Virus record (IMG/VR): IMGVR_UViG_2778261176_000013
Span: 1 to 12,423 of that record
Origin: a virus
Lineage: Duplodnaviria > Heunggongvirae > Uroviricota > Caudoviricetes
DNA length: 12,423 bases
Reading direction: 5' to 3' (one strand)
How positions within the stretch are numbered: the stretch's first letter is position 1; the number at the start of each line of letters is the position of its first letter. The notes below the pieces were generated by a model. It made no database searches, had not been told where the DNA came from, and saw only the letters and a program-made list of their open reading frames with translations. The position numbers and the translations under genes were made by a program. Positions 2,683 to 11,140 of the stretch are shown here, piece by piece.

Positions 2683-3027
2683 TCAGAACTCTTCGATGTT
2701 CCAGCCACCACCTGTTTTCTTTGGTTTAACCGTTACCCCGATGATTCGGAACGGATACTGATCTGCGGCGACTTTGGTTTTCACCCTGGCGTCGTCGGTC
2801 CAGAAACCTTTCACTTCGTGCAGTTCCATCTCTCCGGTGGCGAGCATCACAGCGAAATCTGGCGTATAGAACGTGTTGTCAGCTAACCGCAGCTTGATAC
2901 CCTCGAATCGATACCAGGCGATTTCCCCTGCACGTTTACGCAGCTCAAGGTGCTGGCAATACGCAGATTCAGTTTTGTTCATCTGGCCTGTTTTGAGTCG
3001 ACCAAGAGCCTGTATCTGTTTTCTCAT
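2683..3027 (-). CDS. DUF1064-like protein with PD-(D/E)xK-type motif (114 aa)
   Basis: ATG at 3027 with GAGGT upstream. Contains YTPDF...ELHEVKG, a PD-x(n)-ExK arrangement typical of restriction-endonuclease-fold nucleases. DUF1064 assignment is from memory. Confidence 0.65.
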   Translation of the reverse strand: MRKQIQALGRLKTGQMNKTESAYCQHLELRKRAGEIAWYRFEGIKLRLADNTFYTPDFAVMLATGEMELHEVKGFWTDDARVKTKVAADQYPFRIIGVTVKPKKTGGGWNIEEF

Positions 3028-3115
3028 GATTTACCTCTGAGGTAATTAAAAACCACATAAGACATGAAATCAATAGAGTTTATAATATTTTGTTACCTAA
3101 CAGGTAATTATCGAG
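3028..3115 (-). promoter_or_regulatory. Second PL-like promoter-operator cassette between the P-like and DUF1064-like genes
   Basis: Minus-strand reading: operator B (3093-3107), 19-bp gap, -35 TTGATT (3073..3068), 17-bp spacer, -10 TTTAAT (3050..3045), operator A (3031-3045) overlapping the -10 and the SD of the gene starting at 3027. Shares CTATTGA and ATTACCTCA with the PL-like region. Confidence 0.5.
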
Positions 3116-3119
3116 GCGT

Positions 3120-3139
3120 AAAAAAATGCGCTATCGCGC
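3120..3139 (-). terminator. Weak tR2-like intrinsic terminator immediately after the P-like gene
   Basis: On the minus strand GCGC-GATA-GCGC, then A, then T7. The stem is only 4 bp. Confidence 0.4.
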
Positions 3140-3144
3140 TGGTA

Positions 3145-3921
3145 TTACTTGATAAATCCTGCCGCCTTTCCCCGCCTGTATTCCTCCATCAGCCACTGCG
3201 CCGGTGTTATTCCCCCAAGGGTGGCGGCGTTAGGCATGCACCCGAAACTTCGCCCTGGTGGATGGTAAACGTCTCTCCCTGTGTCCGGAGGTGTACTCAT
3301 GGGCTCTGGCTTTGCCTGTATGCTGATCACCGGATCGGGTATCTGCTGTCCGGAAGCCACCTTTTTCGCCCAATCATCGAGCAGCCTGCGCGCGTGTTTC
3401 TCAACCTCAATCTCGCTAAGCTGGCGCTGATACATTGCACGGCGGGTATCACATACGACCCAGTACATAACCGGATGTCGCCACGGGAATCTTTCGGGAC
3501 CACCAGGATATAAACTTTTTTCCTTGCTGTACCGGTGAAACTCCGCCATCACATCGTCAATGGTGACGCCAAGAACCATCTTGCTGTCTTTGCACCACTT
3601 GATGAATTGCCCAGGCGACGGCCAGAACGGAGATTCACTGGCGCGGGCGTGGCGCATACCAGCGTTAACCTGTTCCATTGTTGTGATCCCATTCTCCAGA
3701 AACGCAAGCATCCATTGCTTACGGAATTCATTAAGTTTGTTCTGCTCCCTTATGGTCGAAACGCTTGCAGGAAATGCAGCCTGTAACTGGACAAATAGTT
3801 CATTGAAAATTCTAGCAACCTGCTCCTTTTTGCCATTGCTGTCACGCCGCTCTTCATGCACAGCAACACCATGCTCACGTAAGCGATCGTACTCATTGAG
3901 AAGTTCTGGAGTTGATTTCAT
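3145..3921 (-). CDS. Replication protein P-like (DnaB helicase loader)
   Basis: [44 protein letters not shown] closely parallels the lambda P segment [23 protein letters not shown]...PFLPSPGQFVAWC as I recall it. Start overlaps the end of the O-like gene, as in lambda. Confidence 0.85.
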
Positions 3922-4723
3922 CCCACACCCCTTCTATCCAGTCAGTGTTATTCCAGTCAAGCTCATCGCTTTTCCCGGCGTTTTTTGATTTTCCCCTGAT
4001 ATGATTTACGTGCCTGGCGAATTTTTGTTCCCACTGAACCTGCGTGAACACTTTGCCCTCAGCCATCCAGTAATCCCGGAATGCAGCAAGTTCAGCAGGT
4101 GTAAATTCCGGTTCCGGCAGGGCCGTTCCCCACAGCGCAGCACGCCGTCGAAAATCCGGCGACGGATGCCAGCCATCGGTCATCGGAAATTTCCCAATAG
4201 GTTCACTCAGGCCATCCAGAAATGCAGGTTCTGCCACCTGCAACGGCGTACCGTTCGCTTCACTGGTCGGATCACTCTCGCGCGCGTGCGCTATGTGTGG
4301 GGTTTTATATATATCTTCCTCTTCCTCTTCCTCTGGTAACTCCTTTTGTAACGCTGTTGGCGTTACTTTTTGCGTTACTCGTTTTCGATGCTCTGCCACT
4401 CTTCTATTCGTAAGTGCACGTTTTTTCGATGATTCTCCATTATGTCGCTCAAAGTTTGGAAGAATTAGTTTGCCGTCATGATAAGCAAGCCATCCGACGC
4501 TAATGAGGGCGTCAGCAAATCCTGTAATAAAAGCGAGTCTATCAAGTACTCCTTTTGTAACGCTGCCAGCGTTACCGTCTATTGTTTGCTGGTCAGCCCA
4601 TGCCCATATACGAACCAGCTTTCCAAGAACAGCATCTGGATCAATACCCAGAATTTCTGCTATCTGAAAAATTTCAGGTTTATCAGGAGTGATAACTTCA
4701 ACCTTAATCCAGCTGCTTGCCAT
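3893..4723 (-). CDS. Replication initiator / replisome organiser (O-like)
   Basis: Sits immediately upstream of and overlapping the P-like gene. Start trimmed to ATG at 4723 (AGAGGGGAAA SD); the ORF-track GTG at 4741 is less likely. Has an acidic linker (EEEEEED) and contains palindromic iteron-like DNA repeats. Confidence 0.75.
4341..4383. repeat. Iteron-like palindrome cluster inside the O-like gene (candidate origin element)
   Basis: CTCCTTTTGTAACGCTG-TTG-GCGTTAC, then TTTTT-GCGTTAC. Palindrome GTAACGC/GCGTTAC at 4348-4366 plus a third half-site at 4372-4378. Adjacent to (CG)4 at 4281-4288, AT-rich TTTTATATATAT at 4303-4314 and a (CTTCCT)3 repeat. Confidence 0.5.
4560..4585. repeat. Second copy of the iteron-like element inside the O-like gene
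   Basis: TCCTTTTGTAACGCTG-C-CAGCGTTAC; 19-bp perfect palindrome at 4567-4585. The shared 17-nt left arm is identical to the copy at 4341, but the two copies fall in different reading frames of the O-like ORF. Confidence 0.5.
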
Positions 4724-4916
4724 AGGTTTCCCCTCTTGCACTCTTTAGTGCACAAGCAAATTCATTACGATGGCGGTTGGCGCTATTCATTGCACATTCA
4801 ACACATGTTCCGTTCAGAACATACCTTTCAGAGAGATGGCCGTGACGGCACCGCTTTCCTGTGAAATAGCGATTTAACCCGGCTTTTGCGGCCTCCATTC
4901 TGGTTACTATCTTCAA
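4704..4916 (-). CDS. Small zinc-ribbon protein in the cII position (64-70 aa)
   Basis: Cys/His cluster CRHGH...CVEC. Lies between the cro-like and O-like genes. Start is ambiguous: TTG at 4916 (AAGGGG upstream) or ATG at 4898. Overlaps the O-like start by about 20 nt in another frame. Confidence 0.45.
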
Positions 4917-4994
4917 TTTTTCCGCCCCTTTTTGTTATTGATATTGGCTATTTTGCACAATTGGAAAATTTGATCAACCAGATTTGGTTTTTTA

Positions 4995-5009
4995 TTACCT
5001 TTGAGGTAC
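4995..5009. promoter_or_regulatory. Isolated operator-family site downstream of the cro-like gene
   Basis: TTACC-TTTGA-GGTAC (9/10 half-site match). Preceded on the minus strand by CATATCTATT, the same 10-mer found upstream of the PL-like -35. Confidence 0.4.
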
Positions 5010-5019
5010 GAATAGATAT

Positions 5020-5043
5020 GAAAAGACCGCCGGGTGGCGGTCT
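5020..5043 (-). terminator. tR1-like hairpin between the cro-like gene and the cII-position ORF
   Basis: Perfect 8-bp stem AGACCGCC / GGCGGTCT with a 4-nt loop, followed on the minus strand by TTTT then CATATCTATT. Confidence 0.55.
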
Positions 5044-5064
5044 ACAGAGGGTTGTAGCTGGATA

Positions 5065-5295
5065 TCATGAGTAGAAGAAGTATGCCAGTTCTGCTTTTGA
5101 GCGCAGCCATTGTCTTGTTTTACAGGCTTTAAAAAGCCCATTCATCAATACTTTACCTGGCATTTTGCGCTTACCTGTTAAGTGAGTCTGGATATAGTGA
5201 CTCGTCGTTCCGGCTTCCTGTGCGAAGGCTTCACGCTCATCCGGAGTAAGTGCAAGCCAGTGCTTTTTGAAATCGAAATGTCCGTTATCGCTCAT
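5065..5295 (-). CDS. Cro-like HTH DNA-binding protein (76 aa)
   Basis: Small protein divergent from the repressor gene, with an HTH-like segment REAFAQEAGTTSHYIQTHLTGKR. It is the first gene of the operon containing O and P. Confidence 0.65.
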   Translation of the reverse strand: MSDNGHFDFKKHWLALTPDEREAFAQEAGTTSHYIQTHLTGKRKMPGKVLMNGLFKACKTRQWLRSKAELAYFFYS

Positions 5296-5449
5296 AGCTA
5301 TTGCCTGATATTTATTTCAGATAATAAATATTCACCCATAAGGTAACAAAAATCAAGGATAGTTACCCATGAGGTGCATTTACCTGTTGGGTAATATTGC
5401 TTTAAATTGAATCATCTACTGATTCATATATGAGGCGATTTTCCAGAAA
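5296..5449. promoter_or_regulatory. Divergent repressor/cro control region (OR-like) with three operator-type sites
   Basis: Three sites of the ATTACC-N5-GGTAAT family: 5332-5346 (TCACC-CATAA-GGTAA, 9/10), 5363-5377 (TTACC-CATGA-GGTGC, 8/10), 5380-5394 (TTACC-TGTTG-GGTAA, perfect). Candidate minus-strand promoter: -35 TTGTTA 5349..5344, -10 TATTAT 5326..5321. Confidence 0.6.
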
Positions 5450-6034
5450 ATGAAAAGTATCCAGGACGTCCGCAGGCAAAATCTCAACGACTTGATCGAC
5501 CGTGAATTCAATGGTGTTCAGACGCGGATGGCAGAAAAACTTGGAACTCAGGCAAATCTGGTAAACCGCTGGGCTCTTGGCAAGAAGGTTATCGGCGACC
5601 AGGTTGCGCGAAAAATTGAAGCTGCCGCCAATAAACCACGTAACTGGCTTGATATCGATCGCTCGCTTTCTCAGGAAGGTTTTCAGCCTGTCGGCCCAAG
5701 CGACATTGGTCAGCTGGCGGCTCACAACCTGGAACGCTGGATGAGCGAAAGCCGCGACCTTTCAACTCAGGGAAAACTTCACCGCGCATCCGGCGTCGCC
5801 CAGGTGACAATCAGCCGCCTGTTAAACAATGAGGTCAGTGTTTCCATTTCCACCCTGGAGAATGTTGCATCAGCATTCGGGCGTCACGGCTATGAATTAC
5901 TGATTCACCCGCACGACCCTGCGACCATCAACTATGACCGCTCGCGCTACGCATTGTTACCCGAAACCGAGAAAGCAAAGATCGAAAGTTACATTGAATT
6001 TGTCATCAACCAGAACGAAAAAAACAAACAATAA
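5450..6034 (+). CDS. CI-like immunity repressor with two HTH domains and no S24 peptidase domain (194 aa)
   Basis: Two XRE-type HTH segments (GVQTRMAEKLGTQANLVNRW and ASGVAQVTISRLLNNEVSVSISTLENVASAF). No Ser/Lys autopeptidase region recognisable. Divergent from cro across an operator-rich intergenic region and followed by a strong intrinsic terminator. Confidence 0.7.
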   Translation: MKSIQDVRRQNLNDLIDREFNGVQTRMAEKLGTQANLVNRWALGKKVIGDQVARKIEAAANKPRNWLDIDRSLSQEGFQPVGPSDIGQLAAHNLERWMSESRDLSTQGKLHRASGVAQVTISRLLNNEVSVSISTLENVASAFGRHGYELLIHPHDPATINYDRSRYALLPETEKAKIESYIEFVINQNEKNKQ

Positions 6035-6055
6035 AATCATATTTTTCAGTAAGTA

Positions 6056-6078
6056 AGCCGCCTTCTGGCGGCTTTTTT
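6056..6078 (+). terminator. Intrinsic terminator downstream of the CI-like repressor gene
   Basis: AGCCGCC-TTCT-GGCGGCT stem-loop followed by a T6 tract. Confidence 0.75.
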
Positions 6079-6084
6079 ATTGCC

Positions 6085-6187
6085 TATACTATTACCTAAT
6101 GGGTAATTTTTTTAACTCATATCTATTGACACCAAACCAAATACGCATAATTATTACCTCAACGGTAACAGACCGAGGTAACAAGTT
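6085..6187 (+). promoter_or_regulatory. PL-like early promoter flanked by two perfect operators
   Basis: -35 TTGACA at 6126-6131, with a -10-like CATAATTA at 6146-6153. Operator G (6092-6106) lies 19 bp upstream of -35; operator H (6154-6168) abuts the -10 and covers the likely start site. Confidence 0.6.
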
Positions 6188-6340
6188 ATGCAGTGGAAAA
6201 TCATCAACGGTTGGTACTGCGTTACTGCATGCGGATTCATGAGCTGGAAGTTCCGCACCTTACAGGAAGGCATTAAGTGGGCTTTCGTCAGCAAAGAAGC
6301 TCGCGATGTGGCCAACGATAACGAGATATGGGAGGGCTGA
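6188..6340 (+). CDS. Hypothetical Trp-rich small protein (50 aa), first gene of the PL-like operon; not in the supplied ORF track
   Basis: ATG at 6188 with GAGG 9 nt upstream, 20 nt after operator H. Hand translation: MQWKIINGWYCVTACGFMSWKFRTLQEGIKWAFVSKEARDVANDNEIWEG. Stop TGA at 6338-6340, 2 nt before the next ATG. Confidence 0.45.
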   Translation: MQWKIINGWYCVTACGFMSWKFRTLQEGIKWAFVSKEARDVANDNEIWEG

Positions 6341-6342
6341 TA

Positions 6343-6642
6343 ATGAACGTTAATCAGCAGAAAAATCTTCAAAAAATCATGCTGGCATTCGACAAGGACT
6401 ACCGCCTGTCAGAACAGCTATATGACCGACAAGTTGAACTGATCGAGAGCATCCGGCTTCATCAACTAGCCTCAACTTTCGACGCTGTAACAGGTAAAGG
6501 CGTTCGCCAGGAAGTACTGGAGGCCGCTAAAGACAGTCCAGAGTTCGAAGAACTGATGGATTCCTACCGGCGCGAGGCAATGGCAATTATCGCCCGCTGG
6601 GATCTGGCGGATCAGCTTGATGGACAGAGGGACGCGGCATGA
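6343..6642 (+). CDS. Hypothetical protein (99 aa) in the Gam/RacC position upstream of the exonuclease
   Basis: ATG at 6343 preceded by GGGAGGG. Stop overlaps the exonuclease start (ATGA). No family recognised. Confidence 0.6.
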   Translation: MNVNQQKNLQKIMLAFDKDYRLSEQLYDRQVELIESIRLHQLASTFDAVTGKGVRQEVLEAAKDSPEFEELMDSYRREAMAIIARWDLADQLDGQRDAA

Positions 6643-8977: not shown

Positions 8978-9277
8978 GTGAGAAAGTTAAGCCGACTTGA
9001 AAAATATCACATGAACAAGGTTTCAATGCGCAGTCCGTCAAAGATTGTCGCCGTTACTCCTGCGGCGATAGAGATCGAAAAACGCGCGATTGAAAGAGAG
9101 AAAAAAGGGCAGTTCCGCATTGCCGCTCACCTTTGGCTTCAGTGTATGGATGTTGCTTCTGGTGATGTTGAGCGTGCAAGGATCGCGGTTCGCAGGGACC
9201 AATGTATCACAAAAGGTAACGGCCTTCGCCGTGGCGACTATAGCGGCATAGGATGTTGTGGGGTGGTTTATGACTAA
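8978..9277 (+). CDS. PerC-like putative transcriptional regulator (99 aa; start uncertain)
   Basis: GTG at 8978 preceded by AGAGAGGG; internal ATGs at 9011 and 9026 are alternatives. RIAAHLWLQCMDVASGDVERARIAVRRDQC resembles the PerC-family pattern. Overlaps the methyltransferase start. Confidence 0.45.
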   Translation: MRKLSRLEKYHMNKVSMRSPSKIVAVTPAAIEIEKRAIEREKKGQFRIAAHLWLQCMDVASGDVERARIAVRRDQCITKGNGLRRGDYSGIGCCGVVYD

Positions 9278-9920
9278 GAAATACACACTAATCTATGCAG
9301 ATCCACCCTGGGTATACCGGGACAAAGCCGCAGATGGTAATCGCGGTGCCGGTTTTAAATATCCGGTTATGAGTGTGCTGGACATCTGCCGCCTTCCTGT
9401 GTGGGATTTGGCCGATGAAAACTGTCTGTTGGCCATGTGGTGGGTGCCAACACAACCACTCGAAGCACTAAAAGTTATTGAAGCCTGGGGATTCCGTCTG
9501 ATGACCATGAAGGGATTCACGTGGATAAAATGTGGTAGTCGACAACCAGATAAACTGGTTATGGGTATGGGTCACATGACTCGCGCCAATAGTGAAGATT
9601 GCCTGTTTGCGGTAAAGGGAAAACTACCTCCGCGCATTAATGCAGGGATCGTTCAGTCATTTACCGCACCGCGACTTGAGCATTCAAGAAAACCAGATGT
9701 CGTTCGTGAAAAACTTGTGCAATTGTTAGGCGATGTTTCTCGCATTGAACTGTTCGCCCGCCAGTCGTCTCATGGCTTCGATGTTTGGGGTAATCAGTGC
9801 GAAGACCCGGCAGTGCAACTACACCCTGGATACGCGTTGGATATTGGCGGATTAACAAATGCATTCAGCAATTCTCCGCTGTCACCAACAGACAACCAGG
9901 GGCGGGAGCGTGCAGCATGA
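9270..9920 (+). CDS. MT-A70-family DNA N6-adenine methyltransferase (orphan, no adjacent restriction enzyme)
   Basis: N-terminal YTLIYADPPWVY carries the DPPW catalytic motif. ATG at 9270 (GTG at 9258 is an alternative). Stop overlaps the start of the next ORF (ATGA). Confidence 0.8.
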   Translation: MTKKYTLIYADPPWVYRDKAADGNRGAGFKYPVMSVLDICRLPVWDLADENCLLAMWWVPTQPLEALKVIEAWGFRLMTMKGFTWIKCGSRQPDKLVMGMGHMTRANSEDCLFAVKGKLPPRINAGIVQSFTAPRLEHSRKPDVVREKLVQLLGDVSRIELFARQSSHGFDVWGNQCEDPAVQLHPGYALDIGGLTNAFSNSPLSPTDNQGRERAA

Positions 9921-10489: not shown

Positions 10490-11140
10490 ATGACCAGTCA
10501 ACTCATCCCCGTATTCAACGGCACTATATCCAACGAAACCGCTCTTCTCGTTAATGCCCGTGATTTACACACTTTCCTCGATGTGGGTAAGCGATTTGCT
10601 TCGTGGATTGTCGAACGAATTGCTGAATATGGTTTCGTTGAAAATCAAGACTTTATGATTATTTCCCAAGTTCGGGAAAAAATAGGCAGAGGCCGTCCTG
10701 CAAAAGACTACCACCTCACCCTCGATACAGCCAAAGAGCTGGCGATGGTCGAGCGTAATGAAAAAGGTCGTCAGGTACGACGCTACTTCATTGAATGCGA
10801 GAAACGTTTAAGACAACAAGAAACAAAAGTGGAGAAGGTCTTGTCAGGCTTCATGCCCGCCATTATGGAGGCGATCAAGCTGGAAGACAAAAAAGAATAC
10901 AGTGCCCCACTGAAGCCCGGCTACCGCAGCCTGATTCACTCGCCGTCTGGTGTTCTCGGCCTGACGGAGAACTCACTGCTGATGAATCTGCTGAACCAGT
11001 TACAGGAAGACGGGCACGACGTATCGGGTGCGGCGGCGGAGCTGACCACCATGTTCTGCTACATCGTCGGTGTGAGCAAATGCCTGCGTGATATCCAGAC
11101 CCACGCGGAGTACATCAACGACAAGGCAGGGTTCTTCTGA
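10490..11140 (+). CDS. Phage antirepressor, AntA/AntB N-terminal domain type (216 aa)
   Basis: AGGAGG 7 nt upstream of ATG. N-terminal region (LIPVFNGT...ARDLHTFLDVGKRFASWIVERIAEYGFVENQDF...KDYHLTLDTAKELAMVERNEKGRQVRRYF) matches AntA/AntB antirepressor domains as I recall them. Confidence 0.75.
   Translation: MTSQLIPVFNGTISNETALLVNARDLHTFLDVGKRFASWIVERIAEYGFVENQDFMIISQVREKIGRGRPAKDYHLTLDTAKELAMVERNEKGRQVRRYFIECEKRLRQQETKVEKVLSGFMPAIMEAIKLEDKKEYSAPLKPGYRSLIHSPSGVLGLTENSLLMNLLNQLQEDGHDVSGAAAELTTMFCYIVGVSKCLRDIQTHAEYINDKAGFF

Follow-up and report, generated by a model that had tools for sequence, protein, structure and literature searches.

The question raised by this locus is what a lone repressor operator does in the short intergenic DNA between the cro-like gene and the replication genes of a temperate phage. 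The window is the whole 12,423-nucleotide stretch of DNA that was analyzed. About 1.7 kb around the site matches Escherichia phages Phi05_2388 B and vB_EcoP_ZX5 at 99% identity and phiV10-type phages at 97-98%. By its sequence, the window represents a Uetakevirus immunity region; this phage is an epsilon15-like temperate podovirus of the phiV10/epsilon15 prophage type, and its repressor is that of phiV10. The family includes phiV10, which is used for O157 detection. Its prophages are common, and the intergenic block is present in 524 of 5,426 complete E. coli genomes.

The gene content was derived from the ORF list and from protein family comparisons. The repressor gene (5450-6034, plus strand) encodes a homologue of the tetrameric SPC32H Rep. 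The cro-like gene (5065-5295, minus strand) encodes a 76-residue HTH protein that matches PHROG 35, 'transcriptional repressor' (E 5.6e-13), and it corresponds in position to phiV10p41 and epsilon15 gp39. The minus strand continues with a 70-residue Cys-rich ORF that has a TTG start (4704-4916), a DnaT-like replication gene (3893-4741), a lambda-P-like replication gene (3145-3921), and a DUF1064 gene (2683-3027). An earlier reading of the sequence alone, called the sequence-only reading below, had referred to the 70-residue ORF as the cII-position ORF. We do not keep that label: the ORF belongs to PHROG 1081, a PHROG without assigned function, and the protein family comparison gave no CII-like signal. 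The leftward operon on the plus strand encodes a YqaJ-type exonuclease, RecT, a PerC-like protein, an MT-A70 methylase, and an AntA-domain protein. This last product is a 216-residue protein with an AntA/AntB antirepressor domain (10490-11140, plus strand), and it is distinct from the antirepressor discussed in the ZX5 paper. The ZX5 paper also gives a tRNA at record positions 14482-14558 (complement), which map to about 4658-4734 in the window, across the junction of the 70-residue ORF and the DnaT-like gene and about 300 bp from the site. ARAGORN found no tRNA anywhere in the window, so the tRNA of that paper is not supported. No Rfam match fell on the site in an E-value scan that covered 2800-6500; the two matches that it gave were both sub-threshold and both at the rep terminator.

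Orthologous regions were collected from the phages phiV10, ZX5, Tyrion, epsilon15, SPN1S, PAT1, and BUCT711 and from six prophages, one each in Superficieibacter, Erwinia, Klebsiella, and Scandinavium and two in Citrobacter. Divergence was followed in an alignment of 10 lineages that extends from the cro-like stop codon to the next start codon, with repressor identity down to 42%. Polymorphism was followed in 46 haplotypes of the phiV10-immunity group. An IMG/VR scan gave 80 loci or contigs in which the repressor is identical throughout, a set that is informative on polymorphism and not on divergence. The GenBank records of phiV10, ZX5, Tyrion, epsilon15, SPN1S, SPC32H, BUCT711, and PAT1 leave the site and its promoter unannotated, in a comparison that covered these records. 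RefSeq E. coli genomes have no feature under the site, and a literature search for transcriptome data on the region returned nothing relevant. In the ZX5 paper promoters were predicted and operators were not mapped.

The three elements that the sequence-only reading named are all present on the minus strand where it put them, with small corrections. The first element past the cro-like gene is a hairpin, AGACCGCC-ACCC-GGCGGTCT (5043-5024, minus strand), that starts 21 nt past the stop codon and has an 8-bp stem with six G-C pairs and a 4-nt loop. It was detected by both a terminator scan and RNA folding. The fold of 5070-5005 has an energy of -15.7 kcal/mol (z = -3.4), a value equaled by 1 of 200 shuffles. 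The same hairpin is already labeled 'putative rho-independent terminator' in the phiV10 record (DQ126339), which gives the same label to the hairpins that follow the repressor gene and the P-like gene. The sequence-only reading had placed an 8-bp hairpin at 5024-5043 followed by TTTT. The hairpin is there, but the tail is UUUCAUAUCUAUU, in which TTT directly follows the stem and TTTT is obtained only by counting the last T of the stem. The U-run past the 8-bp stem is thus short (3-4 U). The segment UUUCAUAUCU satisfies the scanner rule (5 T in 8), with only 3-4 contiguous U compared to about 7-9 nt for a typical U-run.

Across the 46 haplotypes, one position varies in each arm of the stem, one of the changes preserving a G-U pair, and three of the four loop positions are variable. 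A hairpin of -11 to -16 kcal/mol is found at the equivalent place in 10 lineages, and in Scandinavium (L012) the stem at this place has an unrelated sequence. The epsilon15 and Klebsiella clades (L004 2860-2900; L006, L010) keep the hairpin (-11 to -13 kcal/mol) with a tail that is C-rich instead of U-rich. Termination in these two clades may be weak or different, with PR transcripts reading through, and a separate replication promoter would then be less necessary there. In the window, the hairpin is predicted to be an intrinsic terminator of the ordinary kind that serves the cro-like gene.

In lambda, tR1 depends on Rho, and N acts at nutR to overcome it. The likeness of the present site to tR1, nutR, and cII is one of position only, a termination signal after cro and before the replication genes. 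What stood of the proposed tR1 analogy is this placement after cro; the signal itself is of the hairpin type and not Rho-dependent. We did not find a boxA-like sequence near the site, and no N-like family was recognized among the products of the first genes from PL or of the genes on the cro side. Compared to lambda, this phage has a hairpin terminator, a repressor operator, and an apparently fresh promoter instead of antitermination.

The second element is a single candidate Rep operator, GTACCTCAAAGGTAA (5009-4995, center 5002), identified by pattern, weight matrix, and conservation. It agrees with TTACC-N5-GGTAA at 9 of the 10 specified positions and has an A at its center. The pattern itself gave 17 strand-hits in the window compared to 1.3 expected. 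The weight matrix was built, with the 4995-5009 site excluded, from OR and OL operators in 10 lineages, and its training sites score 14.5-24.4 bits. The excluded site scores 18.1 bits, within the OR range of 14.9 (OR2) to 21.9 (OR3). Exactly eight sites in the 12.4-kb window exceed 8 bits compared to 0.56 per shuffled window, and their centers are at 3038, 3100, 5002, 5339, 5370, 5387, 6099, and 6161.

Of 13 lineages, 11 keep the orthologous operator, with scores of 13-21 bits and a constant 17 nt between it and the TTGATC -35 downstream. Its center is constantly 23 nt from the GG of GGTTGAT in the lineages that keep the site. Erwinia (L009) and Scandinavium (L012) have lost the left half-site and kept the promoter blocks. 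The ACC and GGTAA cores of the operator are invariant among the 46 haplotypes, and the variation is confined to the outer T/C position (-6) and the central 5 nt, the same places that vary in the training sites. In SPN1S, a phage of the SPC32H species, the same site likewise follows the cro-like gene, and TTACC-N5-GGTAA is the operator for all of the full-length repressor relatives found. The more remote proteins of Paraburkholderia, Hydrogenovibrio, and Thiomicrospira (L014-L018) match over the N-terminal 70 residues only, and their loci yielded no usable repeated palindromes. An operator-like 15-mer in the cro-like gene, TCACTTAACAGGTAA (about 5171-5185), has two mismatches, scores less than 6 bits, is not conserved in Tyrion, and is probably a chance match. 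The sequence-only reading had assigned 4995-5009 to an operator family, and the score and the conservation bear this out. The site is a genuine Rep-family operator as judged from its sequence, with repressor binding predicted.

The repressor that would bind this operator aligns with SPC32H Rep (PDB 5D50) over its full length, residues 1-190, with an E value of 4e-42. The SPC32H, SPN1S, and epsilon15 Rep-operator systems are the closest known counterparts: they share the genus, the gene order, full-length repressor homology, and the operator consensus TTACC-N5-GGTAA. They differ in that this site and promoter are unannotated in their records and in that the window repressor shares only about 42% identity with those of epsilon15 and SPC32H. 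The form of Rep that binds DNA is a tetramer (PMC9638917). It has an N-terminal DNA-binding domain, a middle dimerization domain, and a C-terminal tetramerization domain for which the authors propose a DNA-looping 'TetDloop' fold, and the two middle-domain pairs, which adjoin the DNA-binding domains, are about 100 Å apart (PMC9986798). The same report describes the repression mechanism as 'not extensively characterized' (PMC9986798).

Two DNA-binding units on one tetramer invite the idea that the 4995-5009 site is an auxiliary operator. Situated about 337-385 bp from the three OR sites, it would mainly give the tetramer a second foothold. The cro-like gene would lie inside the loop, PR would be more tightly repressed, and the nearness of a promoter would be secondary. 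The models for such an arrangement are lac O2, which serves O1, and the flanking sites of coliphage 186 CI; loops formed by tetrameric repressors are well established in lac, gal, 186, and lambda. The OR operators (5332-5346, 5363-5377, and 5380-5394) flank PR, which has the -35 hexamer TTGATT (5356-5351, minus strand) that is invariant in all lineages. The odd number of OR sites is in keeping with looping, since the 4995-5009 site would complete two pairs, as is the retention of the site in 11 of 13 lineages. The distance from the operator to the PR-proximal OR site is 326, 337, 340, 341, or 351 bp, depending on the lineage, with no consistent helical phase. This variable phasing would by itself speak neither for nor against a loop. 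What does count against looping as the primary role is the combination of a variable distance to OR with an invariant distance to the -35, and the fact that both of the other upstream operators are parts of promoter cassettes. A fixed distance to the hexamers and a variable distance to OR indicate that the operator keeps register with the downstream promoter and not with OR. We consider the auxiliary-operator role unlikely on this evidence; it is compatible with a role at the downstream promoter and does not exclude it.

The promoter in question, designated P_rep, lies on the minus strand directly past the operator. A 17-nt AT-rich stretch, TAAAAAACCAAATCTGG (4978-4994), delimited in the alignment of 10 lineages, separates the operator from a -35-like TTGATC (4977-4972) in which TTGAT is invariant in all lineages. 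A -10-like CAAAAT (4955-4950) follows 16 nt past the -35, which puts the inferred start near 4943 and the center of the operator at about -60. The hexamers agree with consensus at 8 of 12 positions, and the -10 has the A at position 2 and the T at position 6. A promoter scan with a cut-off of 9 did not call this pair. The AT-rich stretch may be UP-element-like: its runs of A6 (about -51 to -46) and AAA (-43 to -41) resemble the UP-element consensus. No second operator above 8 bits was found near the P_rep +1 in the window. In epsilon15-type phages, a site of 7 bits covers the ribosome-binding site, 72 bp downstream.

The argument that this weak match is a promoter comes from its conservation. 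TTGAT(C/A) and NAAAAT are 16-17 nt apart in 10 lineages while the sequence of the spacer differs. The blocks kept in these lineages are the GC-rich hairpin, the GGTAA(T) right half-site, the AT-rich stretch ending in CC(A/G)WAT(A/C)YGG, TTGAT(C/A), a T-rich spacer, and NAAAAT. The homology between the window and phiV10 ends at 4972, the last base of TTGATC. Past this base, including 4917-4971, the spacers, leaders, and first genes of the two phages are unrelated, and CAAAAT stands at 16-17 nt in both. These observations suggest that the promoter acts as a recombination joint between the immunity and replication modules. The sequence-only reading had raised the possibility that a regulated promoter serves the next ORF together with the O/P-like genes; the fixed spacing of the operator to the hexamer pair in 10 lineages favors it, and the 8 of 12 match of the hexamers weakens it.

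The organization of P_rep recurs at two other places in the window. The PL cassette (6055-6168, plus strand) consists of the rep terminator (6055-6074), an operator (6092-6106), a 19-nt T-rich gap, the -35 TTGACA (6126-6131), a 17-nt spacer, the -10 AATTAT (6149-6154), and a +1 operator (6154-6168). A fourth cassette (3031-3139, minus strand) is composed of a hairpin (3139-3128) followed by T7, an operator (3107-3093), a 19-nt AT-rich gap, TTGATT (3073-3068), 17 nt, TTTAAT (3050-3045), and an operator (3045-3031), and the DUF1064 gene is next. The 3045-3031 operator overlaps the ribosome-binding site. Both cassettes have the same plan of terminator, operator, 19-nt AT-rich gap, TTGAYN, 17 nt, -10, and +1 operator, and in both the paired operators are 62 bp apart center to center. 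The P_rep region has the cro terminator, the 5009-4995 operator, a 17-nt A-rich gap, TTGATC, 16 nt, and CAAAAT, without a +1 operator. This common layout, anchored on the -35, identifies the P_rep region as a further terminator-operator-promoter cassette minus the start-site operator. P_rep had been proposed as a third regulated promoter, a count that overlooked the 3031-3107 cassette; it is one of four operator-bearing promoters.

In the epsilon15 record, four sites are annotated as bound by 'repressor'. Three of them are at OL and the fourth precedes the RuvC-like gene, and there is none at OR or after gp39. The same motif is present in the epsilon15 sequence at OR and after gp39 despite the lack of annotation. 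At the fourth cassette, the epsilon15 record marks the upstream operator only. The PL region of the epsilon15-type and Scandinavium lineages (L004/L005/L012) has a third operator about 78-92 bp past the +1 operator and before the first gene, which the window does not have.

The resemblance to PL extends to a short word between the hairpin and the operator. The 11-mer TCATATCTATT (5021-5011, minus strand) occurs again in the upstream/-35 region of PL (6117-6127, plus strand). The sequence-only reading had described a 10-mer that is identical to the bases preceding the PL -35. The identity is real and extends to 11 nt; the placement is not quite right, since the final two bases of the PL copy are the first two of the -35 TTGACA and the word is not wholly ahead of this hexamer. 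When the 148-nt intergenic segment was shuffled, a word of at least 11 nt common with the PL segment arose in 1.5% of the shuffles and one of at least 10 nt in 5.7%, in a test that was chosen post hoc. The significance of the shared word is borderline (P about 0.015); the match is suggestive, not strong. It is conserved in the phiV10 clade only (the window, Tyrion, L008, and L009) and is absent from the epsilon15 and Klebsiella clades, although the operator and promoter are kept there. A 16-nt segment, TCTTTTCATATCTATT, is fully conserved within the phiV10 clade, and the simplest reading is that it represents the U-rich tail of the terminator with TCATATCTATT as part of this tail. Against the suggested derivation of the word from PL stand the borderline P value and its absence from two clades.

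The whole site could also be a decaying relic, a rearranged remnant of a duplicated PL cassette with no function beyond termination. PL has TCATATCTATT, the operator TACCTCAA-GGTAA, and the word AAACCAAAT as well, in another order. The +1 operator is absent here, and the left half-site is degenerate in two lineages. Against this reading, the operator and both hexamers persist across repressors that are 42% identical and across swapped replication modules, polymorphism spares the operator core, and TCATATCTATT, with its post hoc P of about 0.015, is absent in clades that keep everything else. We regard decay as highly improbable.

The position of the operator on the path of PR transcripts, 14 nt past the hairpin stem, suggests another role. 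The repressor bound at 4995-5009 could be a roadblock that halts polymerases leaking from PR through the terminator, which would keep the replication genes switched off in the lysogen. Bound proteins are known to act as roadblocks, and the gap between hairpin and operator measures 15-16 nt in every lineage, even where the hairpin has no U-run. However, the block from the hairpin to the -10 is rigid throughout, which means that the conserved gap does not discriminate between the models. Operators already cover PR, so in a lysogen few polymerases would get as far as the site. In the EcoRI Q111 experiments, polymerase reportedly stops roughly 14 bp before the bound protein. The RNA would accordingly end at about 5023, ahead of the release point of the terminator, and neither element would strengthen the action of the other. 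The related idea of repressor-assisted termination was discarded as geometrically unlikely, because a polymerase stopped at about 5023 is still before the release point. The equivalent operators at PL and at 3093-3107 are upstream of promoters, where a roadblock is needless, and the 4995-5009 operator tracks the promoter, not PR. A roadblock function is very unlikely in light of this geometry.

The interpretation that we favor, with moderate confidence, is that the site contains a terminator-insulated weak promoter for the replication operon that is gated by the tetrameric SPC32H-type repressor. From the conserved elements and their fixed geometry, we infer a junction of two early rightward transcription units. 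PR transcripts would end, at least partly, at the hairpin just past the cro-like gene, and P_rep, as a weak sigma-70 promoter, would restart transcription to express the 70-residue ORF and the DnaT-like and P-like genes. In the lysogen, the tetrameric repressor on the 4995-5009 operator would hold P_rep off. A lone operator at about -60 is clear of the polymerase core site, so repression would have to be indirect, and two routes seem likeliest. The bound repressor could deny polymerase its alpha-CTD/UP-type contacts at the A-rich stretch, or the second DNA-binding pair of the tetramer could loop to weak DNA near +1 or to OR.

Both routes have counterparts in well-studied operons. GalR bound at OE, centered at -60.5, inhibits P1 via the alpha subunit of polymerase and is the precedent for inhibition from this position. 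Lac tetramers loop over 60-400 bp, and their looping is efficient in a range that includes the 62-bp operator pairs at PL and at 3031-3107, which fits Rep with its middle-domain pairs about 100 Å apart. The likeness to gal OE and to lac O2/O3 consists of a repressor site about 60 bp upstream of the start and a repressor capable of bridging. The differences are that the proteins are unrelated, that the partner site here is missing or weak, and that the polymerase contact is hypothetical here. Coliphage 186 FL/FR, TP901-1 OD, and lambda OL-OR resemble the present arrangement in having extra sites a few hundred bp from the switch and multimeric repressors. Their sites loop to the switch, whereas the fixed partner here is the local promoter and the distance to OR varies.

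A more ambitious version combines these features. The early region would be a series of terminator-insulated cassettes under one tetrameric repressor that replaces lambda-style antitermination, and the lone operator would do double duty, silencing P_rep from -60 and closing a loop of about 340 bp to the odd third OR site around the cro-like gene. If this were true, one tetramer would couple the switch to replication control. We hold this version to be decidedly doubtful.

The terminator, the operator family, and the repressor were already known; the eighth operator and the accompanying promoter appear to be unannotated. The types of elements are all familiar, and their arrangement is sensible phage wiring with no new kind of element, a finding that opens no new question. 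The SPC32H system is the structural model for antirepressor-driven induction. If our favored interpretation is true, eight sites and four promoters with a gated replication promoter behind a terminator would refine the SPC32H-type induction model. It would also account for the swapping of replication modules at a fixed junction and would provide a clean test case for tetramer repression from -60.

Two minor features are located at the P_rep -35. A CC-N6-GG decamer, CCAAATCTGG (4988-4979, minus strand), is directly upstream of the hexamer, and its CC, AT, and GG are invariant in 10 lineages. A similar decamer is in the PL spacer (6137-6146, plus strand) of the phiV10 clade, and Tyrion has the identical CCATATATGG at both places. 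This decamer could be the site for a second regulator. The -35 TTGATC (4972-4977) also includes a GATC (Dam) site, and the leftward operon has a gene for an MT-A70 family methyltransferase (9258-9920); an effect of methylation on P_rep is possible.
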